DNA from: Spirochaetales bacterium
GTDB lineage: Bacteria > Spirochaetota > Spirochaetia > Treponematales > UBA12059
Assembly: GCA_016928955.1 (NCBI GenBank)
Contig: JAFGJV010000014.1
Span: 6,014 to 70,013, forward strand
Direction of reading: 5' to 3'
Length of the DNA: 64,000 nucleotides
The stretch's first letter is position 1. Each line of letters starts with the position of its first letter. Below are positions 13,693 through 58,645 of the stretch, piece after piece. The translations under genes were made by a program, and so were the position numbers. The notes under the pieces were generated by a model, which saw nothing but the letters and a program-made list of their open reading frames with translations, ran no database searches and was not told the origin of the DNA.

Positions 13693-13742
13693 ACGTTTAT
13701 TGTGTACCGGTCCCCGCCAGGCGCGCAAGGGCGGTCGTGATC

Positions 13743-14858: not shown

Positions 14859-14916
14859 GGGTTCAGTATAGGACGTAATGCGCGGAGACGCTATGCCATA
14901 CCCGATCAAACACGAG

Positions 14917-23472: not shown

Positions 23473-23478
23473 GGTCGT

Positions 23479-30706: not shown

Positions 30707-31404
30707 GCCGCCGCTCCCGCCAGAAGGCCGTCCCGTATGTGGATGACGCGCCTGCAGCGGTCGGCCACGTCGGGGTCATGGGTGACGACGACGATGGTGA
30801 CGCCGCCGGACGCTATGCCGTCGAACAACTGGAGCACGGTCTCGCCCGTGCGCGTGTCCAGGGCGCCGGTCGGCTCGTCGGCCAACAAGAGGGACGGTTC
30901 GTTCACCAGGGCCCGGGCTATGGCCGCGCGCTGTCGCTGGCCGCCGGACAGCTGGCTGGGGCGGTGGCGCACGCGGTCGCCCAGTTCCACCTTTTCAAGG
31001 GCCTCCCGGGCGCGCTCAAGGCGCTCCTTGCGGGGCACGCCCGAGTACAAAAGGGGCAGGGCCACGTTTTCCAGGATGGACAGCCGGGGCAGAAGGTTGA
31101 AGGCCTGGAACACAAATCCTATGCGCTGGTTGCGCACCCGGGCCAGCGTGGCCTGGTCCATGGAGGCCACCTCCACGCCGTCTATCAGCACCGAGCCGCT
31201 GGTGGGCGAATCCAGGCAGCCCATGATGTGCATCAGGGTGGACTTGCCCGAGCCCGAGGGTCCTATGACCGCGGCGTATTCCCCGCGGCCTATGTCCAGG
31301 CTCACGCCGCGCAGGGCATGGACTTCCTCGTCGCCCACATGGTACACGCGGTGGAGTTCGCGCACGCTGACCACCGGCACGCCGGCGTCGCCTGCCCGGC
31401 TCAT
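30703..31404 (-). CDS. ABC transporter ATP-binding protein (MacB/LolD-like)
   Basis: ORF trimmed to ATG 31404. Walker A is GPSGSGKST, the signature motif is LSGGQRQR, and Walker B is LLLADEPT. It overlaps the adaptor gene by ATGA. Confidence 0.9.
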   Translation of the reverse strand: MSRAGDAGVPVVSVRELHRVYHVGDEEVHALRGVSLDIGRGEYAAVIGPSGSGKSTLMHIMGCLDSPTSGSVLIDGVEVASMDQATLARVRNQRIGFVFQAFNLLPRLSILENVALPLLYSGVPRKERLERAREALEKVELGDRVRHRPSQLSGGQRQRAAIARALVNEPSLLLADEPTGALDTRTGETVLQLFDGIASGGVTIVVVTHDPDVADRCRRVIHIRDGLLAGAAA

Positions 31405-32681: not shown

Positions 32682-34177
32682 TCCGTATCTCCTTCATCGG
32701 TGCCTGCTTCTGCATGGTTCGACGGGTCCCCGGCCAGTATCCAGGTGGACCCCAGGCGGGCCCTGCTCTGGGCCGCGCTCCAGGCCGCGGATTCCCGGGC
32801 GGCGTAGGCGCTATACAGGTCTTCCTGCGCCTCGGTCAGCTCGTCGTCCGTGATATAGCCGCCCGAGTGCAACTGCGCGGCTTCCTCAGCCGCAAGGAAG
32901 GCCGCCTGGTACGCGGCGGCAAGGCGCTCGGCTTCCAAGGCTTCAAGAAGCTGGCTCAGCCGCAGGTCTTTAAGGCTCGACGCGGCGTCGGCCAGGGCGC
33001 TGTCCAGGGCAAGCTCAAACGACGTAAGGTCGGCGTTGGCCGCTTTTTTACGGCTGGCGCGGGCGGATAGGTCATTAGGCGACCAGGTCAGGCTCAGGCT
33101 GCCGTAGGGCAGGCCGGATTCCAGGTTCCAGCCCACTGACGCGGCCGCGTCCAGGGTATCCCAGCCAAGGCTGGCGCCCAGCGCCGCCTGTTCTGCGTCG
33201 CGGCTCTGCTCATAGGACAGGGTTACATCCAGCTGTGCCTGCTTGCCCCATTCGTCGGCATAGCTCCTGCGCTGGATATCCAGGCTGTTCTCGGCTTTTC
33301 GCACGGCTATGGCCTGGTCGGCGCTGAGGCTGGATTGGTCAAAGGCGGGCACTGACGGGGCGGCCGGAGGCAGGGCTTCGGGCTCGAATCCGCACAGTTC
33401 GGCCACCAGCTCCCGCGCGTGTTCCAGGTTCAGCCGCGCCTTTTCCAGGGCCAGGCGGGCGGCCGTGGCCGAGCTTTCCAGTTTGGCCAAGGCCGACGAG
33501 CCGGCATCGTAGGTGCCCAGGGCTTTGGCGTTTTGGAGCTGGCTGGCGGCGGACGCGGAAAGGAATTCCTGCCGGGCCTGCTCGTTGGCCGCCCCGGCCC
33601 AATCTGCAAGGGCTCCCAGGACGGCCGCCTCGCGCTCGGCAAGGACCGATGCCAGGGCGTAGCGGGCTTCCTCCACGGCGTACCTGGCCCTGAGGACGTC
33701 CAGCGGAACGAGCCCGCTCAAGGGCTCGCTCAGGTTCTGGCGTACGCTGACGGATGGATACGCGTTGGAGCCGCTGGGGTCATTCTGCACGGCAAGCGAC
33801 GCGTCCACGCTGGTATACTCGTAGCGTCCAAGGCCCACCCTGATCCAGGGGGCCGCGCTGAACGTGGTGCCTGCTTCCGTGGACGCCAAGGCGGTCTGGC
33901 CGGTTCCCGCCGAGAACGACGCGAACGAACCACGTTCCAAGGCGGCCAGGGACGCCGAAGCGGATTCCAGGGCCAGGACCCTGGCGGCTACCTTGTCGTC
34001 CTGTTCGAGGGCCGCCGCTATGTACTCCGATGCCGGCATGGCGCCGGATGGCCGGGACGGGTTGCCCTGGGCAAAAGCCAATGCCGCCGATACCCACAGT
34101 ATCGCGGCTGTGACGATCTCTCTGCGCACGATCGCTCCCACAGACGCCGATTTGCCCCCGAAGGCGGCCCGCGTCAT
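32678..34177 (-). CDS. TolC-family outer-membrane efflux protein
   Basis: It has a signal peptide and two long helical OEP repeats rich in A/L/E. It is the first gene of the four-gene operon. Confidence 0.8.
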   Translation of the reverse strand: MTRAAFGGKSASVGAIVRREIVTAAILWVSAALAFAQGNPSRPSGAMPASEYIAAALEQDDKVAARVLALESASASLAALERGSFASFSAGTGQTALASTEAGTTFSAAPWIRVGLGRYEYTSVDASLAVQNDPSGSNAYPSVSVRQNLSEPLSGLVPLDVLRARYAVEEARYALASVLAEREAAVLGALADWAGAANEQARQEFLSASAASQLQNAKALGTYDAGSSALAKLESSATAARLALEKARLNLEHARELVAELCGFEPEALPPAAPSVPAFDQSSLSADQAIAVRKAENSLDIQRRSYADEWGKQAQLDVTLSYEQSRDAEQAALGASLGWDTLDAAASVGWNLESGLPYGSLSLTWSPNDLSARASRKKAANADLTSFELALDSALADAASSLKDLRLSQLLEALEAERLAAAYQAAFLAAEEAAQLHSGGYITDDELTEAQEDLYSAYAARESAAWSAAQSRARLGSTWILAGDPSNHAEAGTDEGDTE

Positions 34178-34433
34178 GTGTGAGTGTATCCATGGCCACG
34201 CGAGCGTCCTAGGCGCAATCAGGTAAGGAATGTAAGGAACGTGTCAAAACCAGGCGGCTAGGCCAAAGCGGCGTACCGTGGATGTTGCGGGACGCCCCGC
34301 TGGCGGGCGCCTACCCGTGGCACGTATGGCTGGGCTTCCCTGCTCGATGGTATACTGATAGCCATACCAAGCCCGGCGTTCCCCGGAGCTTTGGCCGGCC
34401 ACGCGGGAATGGGGCCGCGGACGGGAGGCGAGG

Positions 34434-36259: not shown

Positions 36260-38440
36260 ATGAGAGCGGCAGCCCTGGCTTTGATTTTCATCCTGTGCCT
36301 TGCCCCCTGTGCCACGGCCCAGGCCGAGGGAGCGGCGTCCGTGGTGGATCTGTCGCGCATTGACGTGTACGTGCGGGAAGGGTTCGCCCTGGAGTGGACC
36401 TTCCAGGCTCCCCTGCCGAACGATTCGGCCTGGAAGCGGGTCAAGGCGGTGGCCGGGAAACGTACTTTGGCGGTGCGCGAGCTGGGCCTGCCTGAGACGC
36501 CCGGACCGACGCTGTTCCCCGCTCCGGGCAGAAAGCCCGCCGAGCGCTACTGCGTGATCGTTCCCTTTACCGCGTCGTCCGCTTTGTTGTCCGCTACCAG
36601 CGGCGTGGGTCTGTACCTGCCGGAGATCGGGCAGAATTGGCAGGCCTACCTCAACGGCTACCTGATCCGGGACGAAACCTACTTTGACGAAACCGGCCGC
36701 ATACGCGTTCAACGCTCGGTCCGCGGCGGCCTCATACAGCTGGACGCGCGCTGGCTCAGGGAGGGCATGAACACGCTGGCTTTCATGGTGGCCGGCAACC
36801 CCGCGGATCCCCTGACCGGACTCGGTTCCAGGGGCTCCTACCTGATAGGCCCGTACGACCGCTTGGCCGAGCTGCGGAGCGAGACGCCCCGCCTCATGCT
36901 GGTAGGCATCTATTTTTTCTTTGCCCTCTACCACTGGGTGCTGTACGGCTTACGGCCAAAGGAAAAGAGCTACCTGTTTTACGGCGTAGCAACCGTCATC
37001 CTGGCGTTCTACATTTTTGCCAGGACCTACGTGGTGTTTGACGTGCTCCTTGACACCAACCTCATCCGGGGCATGGACGCGGCCTTCAGTTTTGTGCTGA
37101 TACCCGTCTTCATGGCCTTTTTCAACGCCGTGCTCAGGCGCAAGCCGTCCGTCTTCGAATACGTGTACGGTGCGGCGTGCGCGGCGCTGGCCATCCTGCA
37201 GTTCGCGCTCTGGAGGGAATTTTTCACCCTGGTATGGAAATGGACGCTCCCCCTGCCCATCGCCTACCTGGCTGTCTTTGACATCATCCTGCCCCTGGCC
37301 AGGAGCATACGGCACTACGTTGGGCTGGCGGGGAAGAAAAAACGGTTCCAGGCCGTGCTCCGCGCGTTGGCCAAAAGCGACGCTACCAAACTGTTGCTTG
37401 GTGGAGCCCTGGTAGGAGGCACTGCCCTTCTGGATTCCCTCGGGGTGCGGTTCGTCAGCTTCATGAACTACATGGACCTGGGTTTCCTGGTCCTGGTGTT
37501 CGGCACGGGCGCGGTGCTTGCCGGCCAGTTCATACGCGTGTACCAGGGCGTGGACCGTACCCGCCAGGACCTTGAGCGACGCGTTGAGACCCGCACCAGG
37601 GAGCTGGAAACCACGCTGGCCGAGGAGGAAGCGCTGAGCGTGCGCCTGTCTGATACCAGCGCCAAGCTGAAAACCGCCGCCGACATAGCGGGCAAGGACC
37701 TTCAGATAGCCACGCAGGTGCAGCAGGGCTTCTTTCCCAAGAAGGCCCCCGTGACCGGAGCCTGGGAAGCCGCCTTTGCCTTCCTGCCAGCCGGCGGCAT
37801 ATCGGGCGACTTCTACGATTTTTACCAGAGCGGGGAGAGGCTGGAAGGCCTGGTGGTTGGCGACGTGTCCGGGCACGGGATAGCCAGCGGCCTGATTACC
37901 GTGCTGGCGCGCTCCGTGTTCCACCGCAACTTCTACGAGCGCAAGCACCGCAGCCTGGGCGCCGTGCTCGAGGCCATCAACGCGGAGCTGATTCCCGAGC
38001 TCTCGGCGGTGGAGAATTTCATCACCGCGGCAGTGCTCAGGCTGGACGAGTCGGGGCAGGTGGAGTACGCAAGCGCGGCCCATACGGAAATCCTGTACCG
38101 CGGCGTTGGGCGGCCCAGGGCCCTGGCGCTGAAACCGCAGGGCGGGGCTGAGTACAAGGGCCCTCCCCTGGGCCGCGAAGGCATAGAAGCCCCGTACAAG
38201 TCCGTCCGTTTCTCGCTCAAGCAGGGCGACTCCATACTCCTGTACACGGACGGCCTTGACGAAAGCCGCAACGTGGACGGCGAGCCCTTTGGCATAGAGG
38301 GCGTGCTGGCCAGCTATTCGACCGCGCCGCAGGGGGAAGCCGCGCAGATGCTGGACTATGTCATGCAGGAGTGGCGCTTCCACACCAGCGGCGCGAAGGT
38401 GGCCGACGACACCACGGTGGTCCTGCTCAAGAAGCTGTAA
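36260..38440 (+). CDS. 7TM receptor (7TMR-DISM-like) fused to a SpoIIE/PP2C phosphatase
   Basis: It has a signal peptide, an extracellular domain of about 190 aa, seven TM helices and a coiled coil. The PP2C motifs GGISGDFYDF, VGDVSGHG, LLYTDGL and ADDTTVVLLK follow. Confidence 0.85.
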   Translation: MRAAALALIFILCLAPCATAQAEGAASVVDLSRIDVYVREGFALEWTFQAPLPNDSAWKRVKAVAGKRTLAVRELGLPETPGPTLFPAPGRKPAERYCVIVPFTASSALLSATSGVGLYLPEIGQNWQAYLNGYLIRDETYFDETGRIRVQRSVRGGLIQLDARWLREGMNTLAFMVAGNPADPLTGLGSRGSYLIGPYDRLAELRSETPRLMLVGIYFFFALYHWVLYGLRPKEKSYLFYGVATVILAFYIFARTYVVFDVLLDTNLIRGMDAAFSFVLIPVFMAFFNAVLRRKPSVFEYVYGAACAALAILQFALWREFFTLVWKWTLPLPIAYLAVFDIILPLARSIRHYVGLAGKKKRFQAVLRALAKSDATKLLLGGALVGGTALLDSLGVRFVSFMNYMDLGFLVLVFGTGAVLAGQFIRVYQGVDRTRQDLERRVETRTRELETTLAEEEALSVRLSDTSAKLKTAADIAGKDLQIATQVQQGFFPKKAPVTGAWEAAFAFLPAGGISGDFYDFYQSGERLEGLVVGDVSGHGIASGLITVLARSVFHRNFYERKHRSLGAVLEAINAELIPELSAVENFITAAVLRLDESGQVEYASAAHTEILYRGVGRPRALALKPQGGAEYKGPPLGREGIEAPYKSVRFSLKQGDSILLYTDGLDESRNVDGEPFGIEGVLASYSTAPQGEAAQMLDYVMQEWRFHTSGAKVADDTTVVLLKKL

Positions 38441-46383: not shown

Positions 46384-47610
46384 ATGGCAAAGAGGACCAT
46401 CATCAAGGCACGCGCGCTGTACAGCGGCGGCAAACGCCTGGAAAACCAGGCCATCGTTGTGGAAGGCGACAGGATAACGGACGTGGGCGCCGCGGGATCG
46501 GTCAAGGCCGACTACGAAGGCTGGGTGACGCCCGCCTTCATAGACGCGCACTCGCACATCGGCATGTTCAGGGAAGGCGAGCCCCAGGCGGAGGCCGAGG
46601 GCAATGACCAGAGCGCGCAGATCATGCCCCTGTCCGATCCCCTGAACTCGATATATTTTGACGACCGCGCTTTCTCGGACGCCGTGGATTTTGGCGTGCT
46701 GTACTCGTGCGTGGTGCCCGGCTCGGGCAACCTGGTGGGCGGCAAGGCCCGCGTGATACGCACCTTTGCGCGCAACCGCAAGGACGCCCTAGTGGCCGAT
46801 TACGGCTACAAGATGGCCCTGGGCTACAATCCCCGCTCCACCACCGCGTGGAAGGGCGAGCGCCCCGACACGCGCATGGGCATATACCAGCTCCTGGAAA
46901 AACGCTTTGACGACGTCCTGGCCAAGAAGGCCAAGAGCGACCTGGCCCTGGACCGCAAGCTCCGCGACCTGGCCCGCACGGCCCCGGACAAGGGCATGGG
47001 CCCCAAGGAGCTGGACGCGGAGCGCGCGGCGGCGCGGAAGGAAGCCCAGCTGGAGCTGTCCAGCGAGGACCAGGCCATCCTGGACCTCCTGTCCGGCAAC
47101 AAAACCGTCAAGGTGCACGTCCACAAGGAAGACGACGCCCTGTACCTTATCGACCTCAAGAAGCGCTACGGCTTCCGCTGTACCGCGGACCACGTGGGAG
47201 ACGTGCACCACAAGGAGATCTTCGACGAGCTGGCCAAGGCCGGCATACCCATCGTGTACGGCCCCCTGGGGAGCCTTGCCTACAAGGTGGAGCTCAAGCA
47301 CGAGGACTACCGCAACACGGCCCTCCTCATGAAGAGCAAGGCCGAGTACGGGCTCATGACCGACCACCCGGTCATCCTGTCGTATCAGCTGCGAGACAGC
47401 CTGAAGTATTTCCTGATAGCCGGCATGGACGAGGCCCAGGCCCTGTCCATCATCACCGAGCGCAACGCCAGGCTCCTGGGCCTGGACGCGGAACTCGGCT
47501 CCGTGGCCGCCGGCAAGCTGGCAAGCCTCGTGGTGTGGAACCGGGAGCCTTTGCATCTTGGGGCTTTCCCCAAGCTGGTCATGGCAGAGGGCGTGGCCGT
47601 CAGGAAATAG
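46384..47610 (+). CDS. Amidohydrolase-superfamily metallohydrolase
   Basis: ATG 46384 is preceded by AAAGGAGGA. The H-x-H metal motif is in FIDAHSHIG. The ORF is 408 aa. Confidence 0.85.
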   Translation: MAKRTIIKARALYSGGKRLENQAIVVEGDRITDVGAAGSVKADYEGWVTPAFIDAHSHIGMFREGEPQAEAEGNDQSAQIMPLSDPLNSIYFDDRAFSDAVDFGVLYSCVVPGSGNLVGGKARVIRTFARNRKDALVADYGYKMALGYNPRSTTAWKGERPDTRMGIYQLLEKRFDDVLAKKAKSDLALDRKLRDLARTAPDKGMGPKELDAERAAARKEAQLELSSEDQAILDLLSGNKTVKVHVHKEDDALYLIDLKKRYGFRCTADHVGDVHHKEIFDELAKAGIPIVYGPLGSLAYKVELKHEDYRNTALLMKSKAEYGLMTDHPVILSYQLRDSLKYFLIAGMDEAQALSIITERNARLLGLDAELGSVAAGKLASLVVWNREPLHLGAFPKLVMAEGVAVRK

Positions 47611-49312
47611 TGGCCCGGGGGCCGGCCGGATTTAGGCTGAGCCGGCCCTCGAACAAGGCGCGGAATTCCGGGCTTGTCTCGATTAGTTCATTAGCGTGGC
47701 CGGAAAGAACACCGCCTTTTCCTATGAATAAGGTTCGGTCAGTTCTGGCAAGGGTCTCATAGTCGTGTGACACGATGATGGTGATACGGGTGCTTTTGTC
47801 TTTCAGCACTGTGTCCGAAAGGAGCTGGGCGGCCTGTGCGTCCAAGCCGCCGGTCGGCTCGTCCAGAATCAGGATATCGGGCTTTCTAGCTAAAGCACGG
47901 GCCAAGGCGATTCTGAGTATCTGTCCGCCGCTCAGGTTGGTGCCAGCTGAAACAACATGGCTTTCCAGCCCGTCGGGCAGGTTTGCCAATTCTTCCAGAA
48001 AAGCGCTATTCAGCTCCGCGGCACCTAGACCAAGCTCTACATTCGACTTAATGGTGCCCTTTATTAAAAAAGGGTCCTGTGGCACGAAGGCGGTCAAATT
48101 CCTGAATGACTTAAGAGCTAGGTTCTCTATGGCTTGATCGTTTATCAATAATCTGCCCGAGTCGGAACTGTAGATGCCTAAAAGCAATCTCAGAAGCGTT
48201 GTCTTGCCTGATCCATTTGCCCCGGCTATTCCTATGCTGTCCCCACGCACGGCCTTGAATGAAACCGGCCCTAGGGTGAAATTTCTCTGGGTCCGGTTAA
48301 AAATTACATCCCTTACTTCAAGAGACTCCACGGACGTCACCTGACATCCGTCGTCTCGCTCTAGCGGCAAAGCTAGTATCTCCTCAAGTCGAGCGGTGGC
48401 GGCTTTTCCGGAGCTGGCCTGCGTGTTGTACTGCACAAGCCCTGCCGCCGCTGCCAGCACGGCGCCAAGGAACGTGTAAAAAACGAAAAAATCCTCAAAC
48501 CCAATGCGTCCAGCCGCTATCGATAGGCCACATATGGCCACAAGGGATGCCTGCCCCATGATTGATGAAAGCTGACCGAAGCCAGAAGGCAGGCAGGACC
48601 AGAGGAATCGCCTGATTGAACTTTTCTTGTAATTGCTAAAAGCGCCTGAGTAGGATCCGATTGCTGAATCCACGGCGCCGAGGCAACGTAATTCCACACG
48701 TCCTGCTATTGCCTCCAGCTTCCGTGCTGAAGTTTCCGATTTGGCCTCAAGCCTGATAGCGGAACGTTGCTGCATGCCAGCGTTAAAAGCCCGTAATGAA
48801 ACAAAGAGGGTGGGAACGGCAACTATGAATGCAGCCGTGGCCAGGGGGTCTATTATAAATGCAGTAGCCATGGTGGCCACAAGCTTGAGGATATCCATGA
48901 CAAGGGATAGGCGGGCATCAAACAGCCAGGCCAAGGCTCCGTCCGTATCTGATTCGATGCGCTCGGATAGGTAGCCGGAATCCAGCTCGTGGATAGGCGC
49001 CCATGAAGAGCTCAGAAATCTTCTGATCACGGCTTCCTTCATGCCACCTTCAATAGGATATCTGGCAACATTTGCTAGGCCCGATGCGAGAAAGCCAATT
49101 CCAACCTGAAGTAGTCCTAGGCCTGCGACGGCAAGGCCCCAGATCGCAGCAGCTTTCGTTGTACCGGTAACGGCTATGTTCTTAAGGAATATTCGTATAG
49201 CCAATGGAAACAGGGCGACAAGGGCCGCCTTAGTCGCGCTTGCTAATAGAAGTCCACATAATACGCCCGGTTGTTTTCGTACGCATGAGTTGAATAGACT
49301 GCAGGCCCTCAT
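47600..49312 (-). CDS. ABC exporter half-transporter (6-TM domain plus NBD)
   Basis: Walker A is GANGSGKTT, the signature motif is LSGGQILR, and Walker B is ILILDEPT. GC content is markedly lower than in the flanks. The start overlaps the upstream stop by ATGA (49309-49312). Confidence 0.9.
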   Translation of the reverse strand: MRACSLFNSCVRKQPGVLCGLLLASATKAALVALFPLAIRIFLKNIAVTGTTKAAAIWGLAVAGLGLLQVGIGFLASGLANVARYPIEGGMKEAVIRRFLSSSWAPIHELDSGYLSERIESDTDGALAWLFDARLSLVMDILKLVATMATAFIIDPLATAAFIVAVPTLFVSLRAFNAGMQQRSAIRLEAKSETSARKLEAIAGRVELRCLGAVDSAIGSYSGAFSNYKKSSIRRFLWSCLPSGFGQLSSIMGQASLVAICGLSIAAGRIGFEDFFVFYTFLGAVLAAAAGLVQYNTQASSGKAATARLEEILALPLERDDGCQVTSVESLEVRDVIFNRTQRNFTLGPVSFKAVRGDSIGIAGANGSGKTTLLRLLLGIYSSDSGRLLINDQAIENLALKSFRNLTAFVPQDPFLIKGTIKSNVELGLGAAELNSAFLEELANLPDGLESHVVSAGTNLSGGQILRIALARALARKPDILILDEPTGGLDAQAAQLLSDTVLKDKSTRITIIVSHDYETLARTDRTLFIGKGGVLSGHANELIETSPEFRALFEGRLSLNPAGPRATIS

Positions 49313-52300
49313 GCGTTGCGCCGGATCACCATGATGGTCAGGTCGTCGTACTGCTCGTCTTCCTTGAGGTGACGGTAATAGAGATACTCGGAACGCCGGG
49401 GGTCGGGGTGGGGTATCTTGTCGCGGCAGAAGGCCGCGTATTGCACGAAACAGCGCTCAAGGGTCTGGTCCACCTTGGCGTCCACCAGGACCATGTCCTC
49501 TTCGGTGGAGGCTGGGTCGGGGACCATGCGGAACACTTTTTCCACGGCGGCCAGGCCAAGCACCAGGTCCTCCGGCGTGCCTTTGGACGAGCTGAAGTCG
49601 AACTCGTACGTGCTGTCCTGGCCCAGGGGGTCGTCGGCCTTGCGCAGGGTAAAGCGACGCCCGGTCATGATGGCCTCGATGGCTTCCTTGATGCGCTCGT
49701 TGCCCAGCTCCTCGGTTTCCTCGGACTCGTGCTCGGTTTCCTTGCCTTCGCGGTCGCGGAGGATTTCCTTCTTGGTGACGACGCTGAAATCCGGGTTGCG
49801 GCGCTTGCGGTTGGATTCCTCAAAGCCGTCCGTGAAGAGCACCATCATGTCGCCAACGCCTATGGTTTTCTTGACCTGGGTGAACGGGGCGCGGCTGAGC
49901 ATGATCATGTCGTTGTCCAGGGGGCCGGCCGCGGGTGAGTCCACCAGCTCTGACTGCTCGAAGGCTCGACGCGCCGCGGAGTAGGTGTACAGGAATTTGT
50001 CGCCGGCGTGGCATATGTACGCGTCGCCGGTGCGGGAATCGTATACGCCCATCATGAAGGCGGCAAAGCGGCCCTTGAAGCCGCGCCGGTACAGGAAATC
50101 GTTGATGCGGTAGGTCAGCTGGTCCAGCTTGATGCCGTTCTTGCGGAGCGACCAGTCCTGGAACTCGCTGGTGAATATGGTGGCCACGCCGACCATGATG
50201 AGGGCGGCAGGCACGCCCTTGCCGGACACGTCGCATTTGATGAAGGCCCAGTGCCGCTCGTCCAGCTGGCGGTAGTCAAAGTAGTCGCCCGACACGCCCT
50301 TGGCGCCCTCGTAGTAGCCAAAGTATGTGTGGGTGGGCCGCTCGTCCTTGCCCGTGGTCAGCTTCTCGCCGGCGGCGTTGGTCTCGAGCGGGATGAACAT
50401 CTTCTGGACTTCCTTGCCCACCGTGAGGAACTCGGCCTCGCGGGCGGCTATCACCAGGCCCATGGTCATTTCGTTGATGGTGTCCGCCAGCGTGCCTATC
50501 TCGTCGCGACTCTTCACCTCGATGGAGAAATCCGCCAGCTCCTTCTTGTCGGGAGTGTCTCGTATGTACTCGATGCCGCGCACCAGCTTGCGTATCGGCT
50601 TGATGATGATGCCGGCCAGTATGATCGATCCGAAGATGCCTATGCCCAGGGCGGCGGCGGCCACCAGGCCCACGTTGCGGAACAGGATGTTGCGCGAACG
50701 GATGATTTCCTTGACGATCAGGTCCGTGCTGACGGACACGCGCACCAGGCCCCGGAAATACACGGGCTCCGAGCCCTGGCGGTACAGGATGGGTTTGTAG
50801 AACACGTAGTCCAACGGGCTCAAGCTGATGTCCGTGGGGTCAAAGCGCGGTACGCTGGACACGGAGTCCTCCGCTATGGCCGCGAGTCTCGCCGACAGTT
50901 CGCGCTGGAGGGCCACTTGGGCTGACGACAGCTCGTCCAGGCGCGCCTGGCTGGCCGTGTCCAGGCGCAGGGCCAGGGGGCGGGCCTCGTCGATCAGCTT
51001 CTGGATTTCCTCGGACAGGGCGCCGACCTCCGCGTTGGCCCGTTCGTTGATGGCCGCCGCCATGTCCTGGACGGCGGGCGACACGGAGTCGCTCAGGGCG
51101 CTCTGGCCCGGCCTGAGTTCTCCGCCGCCTATTTTGCCCGCCAGGTCAGGGTCGTTGCTGGCCCACACGATGTCCGGGTTGATGGACGCGTCGCGGCCGT
51201 AACCGGTCACGGTCAGGTAGCGGGCTTCCGCCATGGCAGACACCTGCTCGGGCAGCGATGCCAGCTCTATCTGGTTGCGGGCCGGCAGGTACAGCCGGCC
51301 GCCCTGGGCCGCGCTCTCCAGGAGCACGCGGACGCGCTCCCCCAGCCCGGTGGCCAGGACCTCTCCCTGGCTGCGCATCATCTGCACACCCAAGGGCACG
51401 GACACCAGGGCCACGACGAACAGCATGAGCAGGCTGATGGTAAAGGCGAACTTGGCCGTGAGGCCGGTTCCCTTGCGCAGGGCGGCCTTGACCGCCCGTT
51501 CGCGTTCTATGGCTGGCATGGAGCTTCCCTCCAGGAGCGCTATGGCTTCCAGGCGCACAACCTGGCTCTCGTGGGCAACGGCAAAGACCTGGCGCAGGGT
51601 CAGGATCATGCCGGCCGCCGAAAACAGGATGGCGCCGATCAGGAACAGGATACCCGGGTCCACCGTGGTTTTATCCGCCGCTGGGAAAATCCAGGACGGA
51701 GTCCAGTCCGGCCCAAAGAGGCCGAATTTGGCGGTACCCGACACGTCTATGCTGAGGCGGGGCGCGGTGAAGTACCAGCCCCGTACCGGATGGTACAGGC
51801 CTATGCGGTATTCTCCCACGGGCAGGTCCTCGAGCGTCACGCCGTCCAGAAGGCGGTCCGAGCGTATGCTGAAGGCGTCCGTGCTGAGGTCCCAGGGTTC
51901 CCGGCCGTCCGCGTCCACGGCCAGCTGGGTTACCGGACCGTCCTCGGCAAAGCCCCGGCCAAGGAGCCGGAGGCTGACCTGCCCGAAGTCGTCCCTGGAC
52001 TGGACCACGTCCGATATCAGGGTATAGGGCACAAAGCGCTCGGCCCTGAGGATGACGCGCGACGCCGGTCCTATGTTGCCCGACGCGTCGATGGCGGCCA
52101 CCGAGAAGGAATAATAGCCGTTGTCCACGTTCTGGAACGCTGACTCGGCTTGCCTGGTGCGGAGCACGGGCGGCGGCGGCGCAGGAGCGCGTTCCCACAG
52201 CGAGCGTTCGTAGTCGGTGGCCGGACCAAAACTGTAGTCGTCCGGCGGGGCGGCTTCCGGCGCGGTCGTGCCGCCGGGACGCTGGCGGGCAGGGGGCCTG

Positions 52301-53991
52301 TCCAAGCGTCCAAGGTACTCAAGCGACCAGGTGTAGCCGGCCACGTCCGTCTCGGCCGGCGGATCCCATGCCAGGCTGAAGCTGTTGGACAGAAGGAAGC
52401 CGTCGGCGTCGGCGACGGGAGCCTGGGGTTTGGGAGCGCCGGGGGGCGTGGTGTCTCGGGTAAAGGTCAGGCGCGCGGGGGCCGACCAGTTGCCGGCGTA
52501 ATCCTGGGCGCGCACGCTGAAATACCACGGGCCGTCCGCGTCCGCGCTTTGTGCTGAACGCGTAACGTCGTCCAGCACCATGATGGAGCGGCTGGGCTCG
52601 GCGTCGGGGTCCCTGGACCACAGGTAGGAGAAGCCGGCTATGCCCGACGAGTCGTCGGGCACGGTCCAGCGGAAGGTGGCGCGGTCGCGGTTGTACGCCT
52701 GGCCCGCGCTAAAGTCAGCGGCGCTCAGTGCCGGCGCCTTGACGCTGATGTCAGGGGCCATGCCGTACACGGCCGCCTGGGCGCCGCGGCCGGTTTGCCA
52801 GAACGCCCATATGGAGCCGTCCAGATAAACGGCCCGCCCGAACGAGGACTCGCCCCGCGTGCGCAGGGACAGGTCGCGGTCGCGCCACAGGACGCCTTCC
52901 CGGAATGCCAGATACACGTGGCTGGAGCCGGTGCGGTCGTCGTACCACACCATGGCCGGCTCACCAGCGCTTTCCACTATGCGCGGTTCCGACGCCGATC
53001 CCCGGCCTTGGCTCACCCGCTCCACGCTACCGGGCACCACGCGTCCGGAGTCGTCCAGCCTGGCCGCGTACGCCTGGGGCGAGCCTGACAAAACGCGCCG
53101 TTCCCAGGACAGCCAGAGCTGGCCGTCCACGGCGGCAAGATGGGGGCGCTGGTTGTCAAAATCGTCCACGGACGTCCGGTCGCGTTCTATGGGATCCAGG
53201 AAGTCGGTGACCCGGACGGGCTCGGACCAGGTGGAGCCTCCGTCGTCGCTCACGCGGGAGAACAGCTGGAAACTGGCGCGTTCCCCGCTGACCAGGGCTT
53301 GGAACACCACCATGTCGCGCGAGCCGACAGACGCTGCGGCCGGAAGGTAGCTCAGCTGGAAATCAGGATTGGCCGTGTCCACAAAGGGCTGGAACGGTCC
53401 CCACGACCGGCCATCCGCCGACGCCGCGTACTCGATGGCCACGGCGCGCACCACGGGCGACCCGGCTCCCACGTCCGCTTCCAGCTGGCCCCTGCTGAGG
53501 AACAGGAGCCAGCCTCCGCTTGCGGTGGGGAAGACACGCGGCGCCACAAAGGGTCCTCCCGAGTCCACGGACACGGGCTCGGAGAAGCTTAAGCCCCCGT
53601 CCATGGACAGGTACAGGTCTACGGATGACGATGACGACGCCACCGCCACGGCTATCCTGCCGCGTTCGTTTGCGGCGGCCGAGAAGAGAACGGGAGCGTC
53701 ACCCTGGTAGGCTATCGGACCGGCGAAACGCTCCAGCCGCTTGGTACCGTCGTCGCCATAGCTGGACAAGGACAGCCAGGCCCTGCCGCCGTCGCCGGCC
53801 GCCTGATGCTCCTGCCAGAGCGCAACCACGCGCTCGCCCACGCGCAGGGCCTGCGGATAGGCGCCCGCCTGGCCGGACAGGCGCTCGGGGGCTTCCCAGT
53901 AGAAGTCCTGGGCCCGCAGGGTATGCGGGCCGCCCGCCAGCAGGGCCGCGGCCAGGGCAAGGCAGCCGAGTTTCAGCCATCGTCGTCGCAT
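49309..53991 (-). CDS. Giant (1560-aa) receptor phosphatase with a periplasmic BNR/Asp-box propeller, two Fn3-like modules, 3 TM helices, a second periplasmic domain, HAMP and SpoIIE/PP2C
   Basis: A signal peptide is present. The Asp-boxes are SMDGGLSF, SADGRSW and SDDGGSTW. Two ...AGFSY..W...DG.WYFSV.A.D.AGNWS-type modules follow. The TM helices lie near aa 779-800, 846-868 and 1106-1129. The HAMP region is KPIRKLV...IGTLADTINEM. The PP2C motifs are GVSGDYFDY, CDVSGKG, LFTDGF and DDLTIMVIRR. Confidence 0.9.
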   Translation of the reverse strand: MRRRWLKLGCLALAAALLAGGPHTLRAQDFYWEAPERLSGQAGAYPQALRVGERVVALWQEHQAAGDGGRAWLSLSSYGDDGTKRLERFAGPIAYQGDAPVLFSAAANERGRIAVAVASSSSSVDLYLSMDGGLSFSEPVSVDSGGPFVAPRVFPTASGGWLLFLSRGQLEADVGAGSPVVRAVAIEYAASADGRSWGPFQPFVDTANPDFQLSYLPAAASVGSRDMVVFQALVSGERASFQLFSRVSDDGGSTWSEPVRVTDFLDPIERDRTSVDDFDNQRPHLAAVDGQLWLSWERRVLSGSPQAYAARLDDSGRVVPGSVERVSQGRGSASEPRIVESAGEPAMVWYDDRTGSSHVYLAFREGVLWRDRDLSLRTRGESSFGRAVYLDGSIWAFWQTGRGAQAAVYGMAPDISVKAPALSAADFSAGQAYNRDRATFRWTVPDDSSGIAGFSYLWSRDPDAEPSRSIMVLDDVTRSAQSADADGPWYFSVRAQDYAGNWSAPARLTFTRDTTPPGAPKPQAPVADADGFLLSNSFSLAWDPPAETDVAGYTWSLEYLGRLDRPPARQRPGGTTAPEAAPPDDYSFGPATDYERSLWERAPAPPPPVLRTRQAESAFQNVDNGYYSFSVAAIDASGNIGPASRVILRAERFVPYTLISDVVQSRDDFGQVSLRLLGRGFAEDGPVTQLAVDADGREPWDLSTDAFSIRSDRLLDGVTLEDLPVGEYRIGLYHPVRGWYFTAPRLSIDVSGTAKFGLFGPDWTPSWIFPAADKTTVDPGILFLIGAILFSAAGMILTLRQVFAVAHESQVVRLEAIALLEGSSMPAIERERAVKAALRKGTGLTAKFAFTISLLMLFVVALVSVPLGVQMMRSQGEVLATGLGERVRVLLESAAQGGRLYLPARNQIELASLPEQVSAMAEARYLTVTGYGRDASINPDIVWASNDPDLAGKIGGGELRPGQSALSDSVSPAVQDMAAAINERANAEVGALSEEIQKLIDEARPLALRLDTASQARLDELSSAQVALQRELSARLAAIAEDSVSSVPRFDPTDISLSPLDYVFYKPILYRQGSEPVYFRGLVRVSVSTDLIVKEIIRSRNILFRNVGLVAAAALGIGIFGSIILAGIIIKPIRKLVRGIEYIRDTPDKKELADFSIEVKSRDEIGTLADTINEMTMGLVIAAREAEFLTVGKEVQKMFIPLETNAAGEKLTTGKDERPTHTYFGYYEGAKGVSGDYFDYRQLDERHWAFIKCDVSGKGVPAALIMVGVATIFTSEFQDWSLRKNGIKLDQLTYRINDFLYRRGFKGRFAAFMMGVYDSRTGDAYICHAGDKFLYTYSAARRAFEQSELVDSPAAGPLDNDMIMLSRAPFTQVKKTIGVGDMMVLFTDGFEESNRKRRNPDFSVVTKKEILRDREGKETEHESEETEELGNERIKEAIEAIMTGRRFTLRKADDPLGQDSTYEFDFSSSKGTPEDLVLGLAAVEKVFRMVPDPASTEEDMVLVDAKVDQTLERCFVQYAAFCRDKIPHPDPRRSEYLYYRHLKEDEQYDDLTIMVIRRNA

Positions 53992-53995
53992 CGGC

Positions 53996-56900
53996 CTAGT
54001 ACCCCAGGGCTTTCAGGCGGTTGTCCAGTTCCACCACTTTCTGCACGCGGGAAGCCTGGGCGTAGGCCGACAGGAGGCGGGACAGCCTGGCCCGGGCTCC
54101 TATGTAGTCGGCGCGGGAGAAAGCGCTCTCCGCCTCCGCGTACAGGGCCTCAGCGGCGGCCGGCAGGACTATGGTCTGGGTGCCGCCGGTATAGAGCAGG
54201 ATGCGGTCCTTCAGCCTGGACGCGGTTTCATTGTTGGGATCCAGGACCAGGGCCCGCTCGAGCTGGGCCAGGGCCGTGGGAAAGCGGGAGCGGTCGCCGG
54301 AATCGTAAATGGCCTGGGCCGCCTGGGTGAGCTGTCTGGCCTCGGCCACGGCCTTGGGGTCAGGGGGCGGCAGCCGTATGCCTATGAGTATTTCCACCCG
54401 CTCTATGAGCTCGCGCAGCCCGGAATAGCGGGGATTGATCTCGTACAGGTCCTTGAGGTCGCTGTACACGGTGGCCAGGTCCTGCCTGGCGTCTACCTTG
54501 CGCCTGGCCTCGGCGACCATGTCCGCGAATTTCCTGTTGAACTGGTCGCTGTCAACCAGCTGGTCTATGCGCAAGTCGAGGACGCGGGCCGCCTGGTTGA
54601 GCGGGAACATCACCTTGACCTCCGCGATCTTTTCCCGGGCCTGGCCGAGCACTTCCAGGGCACTGCGCGTGTCGCGACTGGACATGAAGGCGGCCCCTTC
54701 CTCGAACAGGGATTTTGCCTGGGACAGAAGGAGGCTCATCTCCGGGTACAGGGGCGCGGTTACCGGTATGTCGCGGCCGGATTCCACCTGCAGCGCCGTC
54801 TGCACCAGCTTGAGCCAGTATTCCACTTCCGTTTCCGGCTTGTCGTTGGTGCGGCTCCAGGTGCTTCGGGCCTGGAGTAACGACGATTCTGCCCGGGCGA
54901 ACTGGCCCTGTAGGTACAGGGACTTGCCCTCGGTACGCAGCCTGGACGTTTCGGCTATCACCAGGTCGTTCTGGGCCTTGACTATGGCCGCGCCGAGCTC
55001 GGCCAGCAATTTGTCGCTGGACGCGCGCAATTCCGGGTTTTCCTCGTAGCCAAGCGATGCCACGTAGCGCTCGCTGGCCCTGTCCAGCCGTTCCCGGGCC
55101 GTCTCAAAGTTGGCCGCGCGGAGGGCGGATCGGACTTCATCCACGCGCCGCTGGGCTTCGTTGGCGGCCAGGTCAGCCAGGCGTTTCTGTTCCGATGCCC
55201 TGGCCAGGAGTCCCGCGTTCTCGGCGGTCCGCTCAGCCAGGGCCTGCGAGAGGGACGCGGCTTTTTCCACCCATTCCAGCACGGAAACCGAGCTGGCCAG
55301 GTAGGCCGGCAGCGCGCGGTAGGCGGCAAGATAGTCGGTCAACCGTTTGGACAAAGCCTTGAGGTCGCCGTCCACCTTGGTGAAGGACGCCAGGGCCTTG
55401 CCCGGGTACTTGAGAACTGCGTCAGGCAGGTTAGGATCCTCGGAGGGGAGGCCTTGGAGGAGGGTAGTGCCTTCGGCGACGAGGGTGGCCGTGCCTTCAA
55501 GATCGGCGGCCATGAGCCCGTATTCCCAGGCGGCTTGTTTGCCCACCAGGGATGTCTCGTCTGTCCGTGCCTGGTCTATGCCGGCCTGGACGCTGCCGTC
55601 CAGGGCGCCCTGCAGTTCCATGGCAGCGGACAGGCCATAGCCAAGGTTGACAAAGCGGGCCAGTTCCTGGGCCCTGTCTCCCGAGGCGGTCTGCAGGTCG
55701 CTTGCTTCCTGGATCAGGGCCAGGATGGCCGTCCTGCGCCTGACAAAGCCGTCCAGCCCTTCTGTTCGGGAATCGGCCGGCTGGTACGACTCGGCCAGGT
55801 CGGCTTCTTGGCTCAGGTCCAGCCTGAGGCCGGCAAGGGCCGACCAGGCGCGTGCGCTGTCGGCCGCGTGTAGGTATGACAGGTAGAACGCGCCCTGTTC
55901 GGCCAGCTTGGCCGTGCCGAAGTTGGTTTGCCTTTGGGCAAGGTCTGACGGCACGTAATGGGCCCACAATGCCTGCATGGGCACGGCGCGTTCGGCCAGG
56001 GCCGCAGCCTTGTCAAAGGCTGTGCCTGCTTCTTGCCATTGGCCCCCGGTGTAGGCCAGGCGCGCTGCCGCGAGAGCGTCCGTCAGGGCCCGGTCCACAG
56101 CATCCCGCGCTCTTTTCAGGGCTTGGTCCCAGTCTGCGTCCATGGCTCCGGCCACGCCCTCGGGCAGGGTCTCGCTGGAGCGGCCAAGCACCAGGCGGGA
56201 GGCAAAGGGAAGGTACGAGTTGTCCGTGGCCGTGGCCTGTTCGCTCTTGAACTGTGCGAAATTGGCTTCCAGGGCACGGCCGGCGTCAACTACCAGGCGG
56301 CGTACCTTGGAGTGTTCGGCGGCCGCCAGGCGCTCGGTTTCCATGGCCGCGGCCAGGGCTTGTCCGGCGGCGGCTTCCCGGGAGGCTGGCGCCCGGGCGT
56401 AGTCCTCATAGGCTGCCGCCAGGGCGCGCGACGCGTCCCGGAGCCTGGATCCCACCTCGGCGTAGTACGCTATGGCCGAATTGACCTCTTCCGTGGTGGC
56501 TATGCTCGAGTCTATCAGTTCTTGGCTGACACCCGAGTCCAGGAAACGCTGGCGGTACAGGGTAAACCCCGACGCGTACAGGTTCATGGCCTGGGCATAG
56601 GAGCCCTGGTTTATCAGCTCCCTGCCCCTGGCCATGATGGACTCAAAGGTGTCGCGGTTGGTCGTGAATTCGGCGTATTCGTAGGTTTTGGCTATGAAAT
56701 CGCGCATCGTCTCGTTGGACGGGTCCTCTATGCCGGTCATGTCCTCGATAATCGCCTTGATCTCGTCGTCGCTTATGCCCGGACGGAACAGCTCCAGGGC
56801 TTTTTCGTTCCACTCGGCGCGCAGTTTGGCGATTTTCTGGAGTTTTTTCTGGCCTTCCTCAAAGCGCTCCGGGTATTGTTTCATGAAATCGGCCAGGTAC

Positions 56901-57040
56901 AGGATGGCCTGGTCGTATTCCTGGGCGGCTATCAGGCGGTCCGCCTCTATCAGCGGATCTTCCTTGCCGCCAAGGGCGTGGGCCGACAGGCCGGACATGA
57001 GGATGCTGAGGATGATCAAGGCCACATAACGGACGCGCAT
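53996..57040 (-). CDS. 1014-aa exported TPR/helical-repeat protein, first gene of the operon
   Basis: The signal/anchor sequence is MRVRYVALIILSILMSGLSAHA. The protein is A/L/E/R-rich with helical repeats, and TPR-like segments lie at both ends. The stop lies 4 nt before the start of the giant gene. Confidence 0.8.
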   Translation of the reverse strand: MRVRYVALIILSILMSGLSAHALGGKEDPLIEADRLIAAQEYDQAILYLADFMKQYPERFEEGQKKLQKIAKLRAEWNEKALELFRPGISDDEIKAIIEDMTGIEDPSNETMRDFIAKTYEYAEFTTNRDTFESIMARGRELINQGSYAQAMNLYASGFTLYRQRFLDSGVSQELIDSSIATTEEVNSAIAYYAEVGSRLRDASRALAAAYEDYARAPASREAAAGQALAAAMETERLAAAEHSKVRRLVVDAGRALEANFAQFKSEQATATDNSYLPFASRLVLGRSSETLPEGVAGAMDADWDQALKRARDAVDRALTDALAAARLAYTGGQWQEAGTAFDKAAALAERAVPMQALWAHYVPSDLAQRQTNFGTAKLAEQGAFYLSYLHAADSARAWSALAGLRLDLSQEADLAESYQPADSRTEGLDGFVRRRTAILALIQEASDLQTASGDRAQELARFVNLGYGLSAAMELQGALDGSVQAGIDQARTDETSLVGKQAAWEYGLMAADLEGTATLVAEGTTLLQGLPSEDPNLPDAVLKYPGKALASFTKVDGDLKALSKRLTDYLAAYRALPAYLASSVSVLEWVEKAASLSQALAERTAENAGLLARASEQKRLADLAANEAQRRVDEVRSALRAANFETARERLDRASERYVASLGYEENPELRASSDKLLAELGAAIVKAQNDLVIAETSRLRTEGKSLYLQGQFARAESSLLQARSTWSRTNDKPETEVEYWLKLVQTALQVESGRDIPVTAPLYPEMSLLLSQAKSLFEEGAAFMSSRDTRSALEVLGQAREKIAEVKVMFPLNQAARVLDLRIDQLVDSDQFNRKFADMVAEARRKVDARQDLATVYSDLKDLYEINPRYSGLRELIERVEILIGIRLPPPDPKAVAEARQLTQAAQAIYDSGDRSRFPTALAQLERALVLDPNNETASRLKDRILLYTGGTQTIVLPAAAEALYAEAESAFSRADYIGARARLSRLLSAYAQASRVQKVVELDNRLKALGY

Positions 57041-57076
57041 GATTGTGGAAGCCCCTGCCTCCCCTCCCTGTCTTGA

Positions 57077-57229
57077 GGGAACCTCTAAAAACCCTATGGT
57101 TATGAGAGGTTCCCCGCGTTTTCGGCAGAAAACGCTGGTTTTTTAAGGTAACCCTCCAAAAACTGAAGTTTTCAGAGGCTACCTTGAGCTTTAAGAGGCC
57201 GTTGAAAAGCATCGAGTTTTTCAACAGCC
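57077..57229. repeat. Low-GC four-hairpin intergenic repeat; this is the most complete copy of the family
   Basis: Hairpin 1: 57077-57086/57105-57114 (10 bp). Hairpin 2: 57116-57123/57128-57135 (8 bp). Hairpin 3: 57147-57183 (imperfect). Hairpin 4: 57197-57229 (GTTGAAAA/TTTTCAAC core). The block is homologous to 59350-59454. Confidence 0.65.
57116..57144 (+). terminator. Orphan intrinsic-terminator-like element inside the repeat
   Basis: GCGTTTTC, loop GGCA, GAAAACGC, then TGG and TTTTTT (57139-57144). No plus-strand gene lies upstream of it. Confidence 0.45.
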
Positions 57230-57379
57230 TGTTAAGGAGCCACCCGCCCCCGGATACGCGACGCTTCCCCGCTACTATTGTCGGCGCGTACCGGATTGGC
57301 CTCCAGCCGGATCGTCACGGGACCCTTCAGGTCTCCTCTATAGAAATTACGCCATTCTCACGCTATATTCCATGTTAGG

Positions 57380-58645
57380 ATGAAGCGCGGTACCGGCCTT
57401 GTTTGCACACTATGCCTCGCCTTAGGGACCGCTGCGTACGCCCAGCAGGCCCTGCCATCGGCCTATGAGCTCATCTTTGGCCTGTTTTCCCCCAACCCGG
57501 ACCCCAATGAGGGCCTTACGACCTTCCTTTCAACCCTGGTACCCATGGGCGGAACCGCGGAGAGCATGGGCATGGCCTATACGGCCGTGGCGTCGGACGC
57601 GTCGTTTTTGGAGATCAACCCGGCCGGCAGCGCCCTCCTTGAGCGCACGGAACTGGCCCTCTACCACAACAACTGGATAGCGGATACCCGCATAGAGGGC
57701 GCCGTATACGCCGTCCGCTTTGGCACACTGGGTCTGGCCGCCGGAGGCAAATGGCTGTATTTGCCCTTTACTGAGCGGGACGACTTTGGCCAGAGGGTGA
57801 GCGGCGGCTACTATTCCGAAGCCCTGGCCATAGGCAACGTTTCCCTCCACTTGTTTCCCGGCTACTATTTCTACGGCATTTCCCTGGGCGCCAATATCAA
57901 GCTGGCGTACCGCTCCTTCCCGGATTATAGCGACAACGAAGGCACCGTCATACCCGGCTCCGGGGCTAGCCAGTCGGCCGCGGCCATCATGGCCGACTTT
58001 GGCGCTATTACCCGCTTTGACCTGTTCAAGCTGTATTCGTCCAGGACAAAGAACATGTCCCTGGGCCTGGCCGTGAAGAACGTCGGCCTTCCCGTCCAGG
58101 GCGACCCTTTGCCCACGGTGGCCACCGTGGGCATGGCCTACAGCTTTTTCCGGCCCATACTGATATCCGCCGACCTGAGCTTTCCCATCAACCTGGTAGA
58201 CCCGTCCTTGAGCGAGCGGCCGTACTGGGGCATAGGCTACCGCATGACCATTACCGATTTCTGGTCGCTACGAGCCGGTTTCCTGGTGAAAGGCGGCAAT
58301 CCGCGGCTCAGCGTGGGGGCCTCCATAGCCCTGTCGCCCATGACGTTGGAGGTCAACTACACCCTTGACCTCATCACCCAGTTCACGCCGCTCAACCGCA
58401 TCAGCATAGAGGCCCGCTTTGACATGGGCGACATGGGCAGGGCGTCCAAGGCGGCCACCGTTGACTCACTCTACATAGCGGGCCTGGAGGCGTACGCCGC
58501 CGGAGACCTGGAAAAGGCTGTGGAATACTGGGACAAGGCCCTGGCCCTGGATCCGTACTTTGATCCCGCCAGGGAAGCCCGGGACAACGCCGTTGCGGCC
58601 CTGGAGATGATCAAGCGCATACAGGAATTGCAGACACTGGACTGA
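57380..58645 (+). CDS. FadL/UPF0164-like outer-membrane beta-barrel protein with a C-terminal TPR extension
   Basis: A signal peptide is present. The hatch-type motif is ASDASFLEINPAGSALL (NPA). Beta-strand periodicity runs for about 340 aa. The helical tail ...LYIAGLEAYAAGDLEKAVEYWDKALALDPYFDPAREARDNA... is TPR-like. Confidence 0.7.
   Translation: MKRGTGLVCTLCLALGTAAYAQQALPSAYELIFGLFSPNPDPNEGLTTFLSTLVPMGGTAESMGMAYTAVASDASFLEINPAGSALLERTELALYHNNWIADTRIEGAVYAVRFGTLGLAAGGKWLYLPFTERDDFGQRVSGGYYSEALAIGNVSLHLFPGYYFYGISLGANIKLAYRSFPDYSDNEGTVIPGSGASQSAAAIMADFGAITRFDLFKLYSSRTKNMSLGLAVKNVGLPVQGDPLPTVATVGMAYSFFRPILISADLSFPINLVDPSLSERPYWGIGYRMTITDFWSLRAGFLVKGGNPRLSVGASIALSPMTLEVNYTLDLITQFTPLNRISIEARFDMGDMGRASKAATVDSLYIAGLEAYAAGDLEKAVEYWDKALALDPYFDPAREARDNAVAALEMIKRIQELQTLD

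Follow-up and report, generated by a model that had tools for sequence, protein, structure and literature searches.

The question raised by this locus is whether three tightly packed bacterial genes encode a single machine. The genes lie in a 64,000-nucleotide stretch of DNA from a Spirochaetales bacterium (assembly GCA_016928955.1, contig JAFGJV010000014.1), the whole of which is referred to here as the window. They encode, in the order of transcription, a large exported helical protein, a receptor phosphatase, and an ABC half-transporter. A preliminary description of the sequence had proposed that all three might belong to one previously undescribed envelope system in which the phosphatase controls the exporter or is controlled by it. 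Comparison with the corresponding loci of other spirochetes points, with high confidence as far as the structure of the locus is concerned, to a different arrangement: a conserved triad, made up of the first two genes and a divergently transcribed barrel gene, to which a foreign ABC gene appears to have been added.

Gene organization of the locus

The genes, as taken from the open reading frame (ORF) list, and the spaces between them are as follows.

47600-49312, minus strand: ABC half-transporter gene, 570 aa
49309-53991, minus strand: receptor phosphatase gene of the TP0854 family, 1560 aa
53992-53995, minus strand: 4-nt spacer between the stop codon of the TP0855-like gene and the start codon of the receptor gene (TAG, gccg, ATG)
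53996-57040, minus strand: gene for a helical, TPR-like protein of the TP0855 family, 1014 aa (TPR, tetratricopeptide repeat)
57041-57379: divergent intergenic region, 339 nt, presumed to house the promoters of both transcription units
57380-58645, plus strand: UPF0164 barrel gene, divergent from the operon, 421 aa

Reading of the sequence gave the coordinates and both junction sequences claimed for the three minus-strand ORFs, namely, the 4-nt gap and, between the receptor and ABC genes, an ATGA start/stop overlap at 49309-49312, in which the ATG of the ABC gene is formed from the last codon and the stop codon of the receptor gene. The tight packing makes co-transcription of all three genes probable, as had been suggested. 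For the receptor and ABC genes it is likely in this genome because their start and stop codons overlap and no terminator lies between them. Close packing is common in bacteria, and the meaningful signal is its conservation; in the comparisons below, it was conserved at the first junction (63 of 66 loci) and not at the second (0 of 33).

Conservation of gene order among spirochetes

Relatives of the receptor were collected by a scan of species-representative genomes. The scan gave 549 relatives, from which the best 80 loci, all from spirochetes, were kept, and the window proteins were run against these loci by tblastn. Upstream sequence was present in 68 loci and at least 1.8 kb of downstream sequence in 33; the count for the barrel gene was based on 49 loci.

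A TP0855-like gene was located directly upstream of the receptor gene, on the same strand, in 66 of the 68 loci. The junction between the two genes measured -4 to +6 nt in 63 of these 66, and the genes overlapped in 53; the 4-nt spacer of the window differs in this respect from the start/stop overlap found at the equivalent junction in most relatives. A divergent UPF0164 gene was present in 46 of 49 loci, and the TPR tail of the barrel aligned in all 46 syntenic orthologs, bearing out the earlier report of a divergent FadL-like neighbor with a TPR tail. No ABC gene was found behind the receptor gene in any of the 33 loci with sufficient downstream sequence. Synteny had been chosen beforehand as the check on the three-gene proposal: it was lacking for the ABC exporter, and the other two genes were conserved as a pair. 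The module appears to be ancient and, as far as sampled, restricted to the class Spirochaetia.

The same triad was found in S. thermophila and in strain 38H-sp, whose contig records list the Pfam families TP_0855_helical and TP_0855_C for the gene upstream of the receptor. Cultivable species in which it was found are, besides S. thermophila, Treponema primitia, Breznakiella homolactica, and Gracilinema caldarium. In these two genomes, an ankyrin-repeat protein and a protein of ~260 aa are encoded beyond the UPF0164 gene (locus L081, 3001-4723, in S. thermophila and locus L082, 2948-4649, in strain 38H-sp), whereas YggT and YhbY are encoded there in the window and its closer relatives; thus, the outer flanks of the triad differ between clades. 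The TP0855-family gene of S. thermophila (L081, 6063-9004) has been called as two genes, of 416 and 630 aa with an overlap of ~200 nt, where a single gene of ~1000 aa would be expected; this points to a frameshift, a mistake in sequencing, or a genuine split in that genome.

On the downstream side, more than 30 Treponema-type loci from metagenome-assembled genomes (L025, L028, L029, L033, L035, L036, L043, and others) had contigs that ended ~0.6-1 kb past the receptor gene. The complete genome of Breznakiella homolactica (L031, 6091-11348) has an rRNA operon (16S, tRNA, 23S, 5S) beginning ~1.5 kb after the receptor gene. A collapsed rRNA repeat is probably the cause of the contig breaks, implying a conserved receptor-rRNA neighborhood in that clade.

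Origin of the ABC gene

The ABC protein has six transmembrane (TM) segments and one nucleotide-binding domain, matches Pfam ABC_membrane and ABC_tran as had been claimed, and is a half-transporter of type B. The Walker A (GANGSGKT), Q-loop, LSGGQ, Walker B (ILILDEPT), and H-loop (VSHD) motifs are all intact, and the gene is therefore probably functional. Its GC content at third codon positions (GC3) was 0.552; in 43 other window genes it was 0.807 ± 0.033 (z = -7.7). The fall in GC extends exactly across ~47650 to ~49300, matching the gene. Although the protein shares both domains and the ATPase motifs with MsbA/CydDC-like type-B half-transporters, its best non-self match among 5.8 billion proteins had only 29-30% identity, and it scored far below the cutoff of every NCBIfam equivalog (CydDC, MsbA, HlyB, bacteriocin exporters). 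These matches reached 30-55% of the cutoffs, the best being to CydD (188 bits, cutoff 435) and the next to MsbA (182 bits, cutoff 602), with the remainder lower in relation to theirs.

In the closest relatives, the receptor stop codon is followed by a spacer of 110-200 nt with a GC-rich hairpin and a T-run, and then by convergent amidohydrolase and DUF72 genes. The same two genes flank the locus in the window, where the 1.7-kb ABC gene stands in place of the spacer. An assembly chimera was considered as the source of the ABC gene and was ruled out by the conserved synteny on both sides, with the receptor gene on one and the amidohydrolase and DUF72 genes on the other. Because the ABC gene has an aberrant GC3, lacks any relative above ~30% identity, and sits in the terminator spacer, we conclude that it is a horizontally acquired passenger. 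It appears to be a lineage-specific insertion present in this genome only, and not a component of the signaling module; it is probably functional and expressed by read-through from the operon. No ABC substrate or partner genes lie nearby. At its 3' end the ABC gene runs 11 nt into the convergent amidohydrolase gene (47600-47610) with no terminator between the two, and convergent transcripts would therefore collide.

These results bear directly on the proposal that the three co-transcribed genes form one envelope sensing and export machine, with the phosphatase controlling the ABC exporter or being controlled by it. The likelihood of co-transcription and the probable functionality of the transporter are consistent with it; however, the exporter gene adjoins the receptor gene in none of the 33 loci, is foreign in composition, has no close homolog, and fills a spacer that bears a terminator in relatives. 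In addition, the receptor family works without the ABC protein in hundreds of genomes, including that of Treponema pallidum. We consider a three-gene machine very improbable. Control of the exporter by phosphatase output found no comparative support, and this claim should be dropped; the exporter is incidental to the module. What the ABC gene illustrates instead, cleanly and on a small scale, is the insertion of a gene gained by horizontal transfer where a resident operon has its terminator region.

Relationship to T. pallidum TP0854-TP0856

The conserved part of the locus has a counterpart in T. pallidum, in which adjacent genes encode a SpoIIE family phosphatase of 1533 aa (TP0854), a hypothetical protein of 1127 aa (TP0855), and a UPF0164 protein of 394 aa (TP0856) (PMC10600179). 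All three families, and the order of their genes, are shared with the window, where the proteins are of similar size (1560, 1014, and 421 aa, respectively). The first 400 residues of TP0854 aligned colinearly with the window receptor by BLASTP, with 30.5% identity and an E value of 8e-46. BLASTP of the 1014-aa protein against an N-terminal fragment of TP0855 gave no match, and a profile was needed; one built from 51 orthologs matched the TP0855 N terminus with 96.8 bits (E 3e-31). Orthology with TP0854 and TP0855 is based on their N-terminal ~400 residues together with protein length and gene order.

The two loci also differ. No ABC gene is listed beside TP0854, whose other neighbor is a MinD/ParA gene. 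The barrel gene has undergone tandem expansion in T. pallidum (TP0856, TP0858, and TP0859), and the adjacent copy lacks the TPR tail. An outer-membrane location had once been predicted for TP0855, whereas its counterpart in the window was modeled as an all-alpha, soluble periplasmic protein.

Both TP0854 and TP0855 have been detected as proteins in T. pallidum (PMC10600179). The literature that we found on these two proteins and their orthologs consisted of proteomic detection, localization predictions, modeling notes, and use as a typing locus, with no functional study among it. The earlier statement that the system had not been described is therefore correct in the functional sense and incorrect in that the conserved part is orthologous to annotated T. 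pallidum genes and Pfam families have been named after TP_0855. The window genes are new members of catalogued families, and the module is an uncharacterized variant of sensor-phosphatase systems.

The receptor phosphatase

An AlphaFold model of receptor residues 1-1200 (mean pLDDT 85.9), together with hydrophobicity analysis and with Pfam and Foldseek searches, gave the following architecture.

~30-415 aa, following a signal peptide: BNR/sialidase-type beta-propeller (AlphaFold, Foldseek)
~420-750 aa: Ig-like beta-sandwiches (AlphaFold)
~779-800 aa: TM1, followed by a cytoplasmic helical loop (AlphaFold)
~846-870 aa: TM2 (AlphaFold)
~872-1088 aa: periplasmic alpha/beta domain with an inserted helical hairpin; Cache-like solely in its predicted topology
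1125-1179 aa: HAMP domain, preceded by TM3 (AlphaFold, Pfam)
~1200-1560 aa: SpoIIE/PP2C domain (Pfam SpoIIE at residues 1245-1412)
1393-1545 aa (window ~49357-49815): insertion of ~150 aa in PP2C, between the TDG and DDLT motifs

The assignment of this protein as a BNR/HAMP/PP2C receptor was thus upheld, with HAMP and SpoIIE found by Pfam and the sialidase-type propeller by Foldseek. The architecture was conserved in 58 full-length homologs (~1550 aa) with 37-64% identity, and BNR_2 (PF13088) was among the precomputed annotations of several of them.

The SpoIIE match (PF07228) had a score of 75.7 bits (cutoff 25) and an E value of 5.8e-21. The PP2C motifs read GVSGDYFDY, KCDVSGKG, FTDGFEE, and QYDDLT, and residues D1236, D1254, G1257, D1388, D1549, and D1550 of this domain were invariant in 12 homologs. 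The conserved aspartates of the GDxxD, DVxGxG, TDG, and DD(L/I)T motifs we take to be the metal-binding sites of PPM phosphatases. A phmmer search of PDB sequences with the catalytic part gave no relative at E<=1e-3. The insertion at 1393-1545, in which FDF, EKVFR, and VD motifs are invariant, is conserved in the family and matched nothing in Pfam; it may serve regulation or docking as a subdomain peculiar to this family. For the second periplasmic domain (872-1100), no significant Pfam or PDB sequence match was obtained, and a faint sCache_3 match was seen in 2-3 of 11 members.

By Foldseek, the propeller was nearest to sialidases, the GH145 protein BT3686, and a PL42 (rhamnose-glucuronate) lyase, with target TM scores of ~0.6, in agreement with the Phyre2 modeling of TP0854 on sialidases (PMC5956850). 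These matches raise the possibility that the ectodomain is a periplasmic sialidase-like glycoside hydrolase or lyase, that the phosphatase monitors this activity or controls it, and that the TP0855-like protein scaffolds envelope glycan or peptidoglycan metabolism. The invariant charged residues E33, R152, R282, E297, R298, and D351 of the propeller might, judging from the sequence, correspond to an arginine triad plus acid. However, identity to the enzymes was just 12-18%, and the receptor has no FRIP motif. Moreover, BNR propellers are often noncatalytic binding modules, an example being the Bacteroides sensor BT4663, which was itself among the Foldseek matches, and the wiring of HAMP to PP2C is typical of sensors. 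An enzymatic role for the ectodomain is therefore improbable in our estimation.

SpoIIE/PP2C receptors normally feed partner-switching modules, and the preliminary description had noted the lack of such genes nearby. This was borne out when all window ORFs of any considerable size were scanned with Pfam: neither a STAS protein nor an anti-sigma kinase (HATPase_c_2) was found among them. T. pallidum has three STAS proteins (TP0220, TP0233, and TP0540), none of which is encoded beside TP0854. A second SpoIIE/PP2C phosphatase, of another type, with a 7TMR-DISM membrane domain and a SpoIIE match of E 1e-31, is encoded in the window at 36260-38440 on the plus strand, also with no STAS partner nearby, indicating that the genome carries several orphan sensor phosphatases.

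The periplasmic TP0855-like protein

The 1014-aa protein begins with a Sec signal peptide, cleaved around SAHA/LGGKED, which agrees with the claim that it is exported. The claim that it is a TPR protein applied to its C-terminal third only. The AlphaFold model (mean pLDDT 88.9) was all-alpha, with helices of 30-60 residues up to ~710 and TPR-like short helix pairs from ~714 to 1014. A Pfam scan gave no significant match, including to TPR families, and the Foldseek matches to PDB structures were weak and of a generic TPR or solenoid kind. The orthologs likewise carry a Sec signal peptide followed by a conserved GG(R/K)ED motif, and a lipobox was present in 1 of 51. Given the signal peptide and the scarcity of lipoboxes, the protein is predicted to be a soluble, all-alpha periplasmic protein, unlike the outer-membrane protein that TP0855 had been thought to be.

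In a word-indexed search with this protein a 99% identical copy was the sole match, its Ala-rich composition having probably crowded the list of candidates, and an exhaustive HMMER search was used instead. At E<=1e-30 the family comprised 387 representative clusters; the named members were all from Spirochaetia and all annotated as "hypothetical protein". The Pfam family PF27421 (TP_0855_helical) was recorded on the 99% identical copy, and PF27421 and PF27427 (TP_0855_C) were both recorded on syntenic orthologs. Assignment of the window protein to the TP_0855 family was made through this copy, the orthologs, and the 51-ortholog profile rather than through a direct score of the window protein; as expected for the family, it is secreted and all-helical, has a length of ~1000 aa, and has its gene directly upstream of one for a TP0854-type receptor. 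Unusually long members of the family (1480 and 1861 aa) contained no informative fused domains. Another helical protein of ~1078 aa, encoded in the window at 6516-9752 on the minus strand and having a faint TPR_14 match, was examined as a possible paralog and rejected (best BLASTP E value, 0.84).

The UPF0164 barrel

The divergently encoded protein matched UPF0164 (PF03687) with 175.4 bits against a cutoff of 21.4 (E 1.7e-51). Its match to the NCBIfam PorV/PorQ family (2.2e-18) was below the cutoff. The tail occupies residues ~350-421 and contains a TPR_2 match at 363-392 (E 1.2e-5) whose 25.5 bits fall just under the cutoff of 27. The NPA hatch motif described for the FadL-like proteins of T. 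pallidum (PMC8407342) reads EINPAGSA in the window protein and EANPAGSA in T. pallidum. FadL-like barrels that carry a helical TPR bundle at the C terminus, TP0548, TP0859, and TP0865, have already been described and fall into subgroups I and III (PMC8407342); by BLASTP, the window barrel was closest to TP0865 and TP0859.

The barrel could, in principle, be independent of the other two genes, i.e., a nutrient channel that shares a bidirectional promoter region with the TP0855-like/receptor pair and stands apart from its signaling. The FadL-like proteins of T. pallidum have been regarded as importers of hydrophobic nutrients, and tp0856, tp0858, and tp0859 are co-transcribed among themselves (PMC8407342); moreover, TP0856, the copy adjoining TP0855, is without the tail. 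This explanation is unlikely, however, because the divergent adjacency in 46 of 49 loci persists where the receptors are ~40% identical and the genes further out differ, and because the periplasmic TPR tail was kept in every one of the 46 orthologs.

Scans of the locus with promoter and terminator consensus sequences were uninformative (4 sites vs. 2.0 ± 1.6 expected; 11 vs. 8.6 ± 3.1 expected), and the promoter-like sites in the intergenic region 57041-57379 were weak and not significant. Between the divergent starts, on the strand of the barrel gene, there is a hairpin at 57116-57145 (plus strand) with an 8-bp stem, GCGTTTTC/GAAAACGC, followed by a T-run, TGGTTTTTTA. It may act as a leader or an attenuator, or it may have arisen by chance.

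A model for the triad

The predicted locations of the three conserved proteins are the outer membrane for the barrel, the periplasm for the TP0855-like protein, and the inner membrane for the receptor. We favor, as fairly probable, the interpretation that they form a trans-envelope sensor to whose operon the ABC gene was recently added as a passenger. According to this model, the FadL-like barrel would report a surface or envelope cue, e.g., an altered state of the outer membrane or a ligand that is hydrophobic or a glycan. Its TPR tail would contact the TP0855-like solenoid, which would bridge the periplasm to the receptor ectodomain. HAMP would then switch the SpoIIE/RsbU-type PP2C phosphatase, which would dephosphorylate an unlinked STAS anti-anti-sigma protein and so flip a partner switch. 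The substrate is proposed to be a phospho-STAS protein because other PF07228 enzymes act on such proteins, and it is proposed to be unlinked because all three STAS genes of T. pallidum lie away from TP0854. The receptor gene is translationally coupled to the TP0855-like gene, a coupling conserved among relatives. The foreign ABC gene, inserted exactly in the terminator spacer after the receptor gene, probably borrows the transcription of the operon and uses the receptor stop region for its start. The complete signaling chain, from barrel through solenoid and receptor to an unlinked STAS protein, is more tentative than the triad itself, and we would place it somewhat below an even chance.

Several observations weigh against a trans-envelope sensor. 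The divergent gene order, though conserved, might stem from shared regulation alone and not from contacts among barrel, solenoid, and receptor. In T. pallidum, it is TP0859, two genes further along than the tailless neighbor TP0856, that has the TPR tail. The propeller might be an enzyme instead of a sensor, and the second periplasmic domain is not assignable to Cache by sequence. The proposed STAS substrate of the phosphatase has no gene in the window, nor is a kinase gene present there. As for the passenger, the closest sampled relative is only 63-64% identical, and the ABC gene may have arrived less recently than supposed or may since have acquired a functional link in this lineage.

Comparison with characterized systems

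The closest characterized functional analog of the window receptor is RsbU of Chlamydia trachomatis (CT588). It too is a receptor in the membrane, combines a periplasmic sensor domain with HAMP and with PP2C on the cytoplasmic side, and acts on STAS anti-anti-sigma proteins (PMC4552016, PMC11619594). The chlamydial protein is much smaller, has a single periplasmic domain, and lacks the propeller/Ig ectodomain, a periplasmic solenoid, and an outer-membrane partner. The STAS and kinase proteins with which it works have been identified; for the window receptor, a STAS partner is proposed. RsbU, RsbP, and SpoIIE of Bacillus (PF07228 PPM phosphatases) belong to the same catalytic family as the window receptor and have the conserved metal-binding aspartate motifs. 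They are cytoplasmic or have polytopic membrane anchors with no extracytoplasmic sensor domains; the window receptor, in contrast, has ~1000 aa outside the cytoplasm and the ~150-aa insertion inside PP2C. The substrates of the Bacillus enzymes are phospho-STAS proteins (PMC11418112).

A giant receptor phosphatase and its periplasmic partner have thus been kept beside a FadL-like barrel across the Spirochaetia, and the syphilis agent, whose genome is reduced, still has the triad (TP0854-TP0856) and expresses all three of its genes. If these proteins do form a trans-envelope sensor, they would open a first way into the question of how treponemes perceive their environment and would suggest a signaling role for FadL-like proteins, at present investigated solely as channels for nutrients and as targets for vaccines. 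It is conceivable, if rather doubtful, that the triad constitutes a spirochete-specific pathway from the outer membrane to transcription, unlike TonB/anti-sigma or Rcs signaling.

Other genes in the window

At 29519-34243 on the minus strand there is a tripartite efflux cluster of the MacB type. Its products are a permease (FtsX/MacB_PCD), an adaptor of the HlyD family, and a protein of 521 aa that has no Pfam match and is encoded where the outer-membrane factor would be expected. Further signaling genes, at 12400-15260 and 22243-23478, both on the minus strand, encode a BrkB-like/cNMP-binding fusion, a MASE6-GGDEF diguanylate cyclase, and a hemerythrin-PAS_10 protein.

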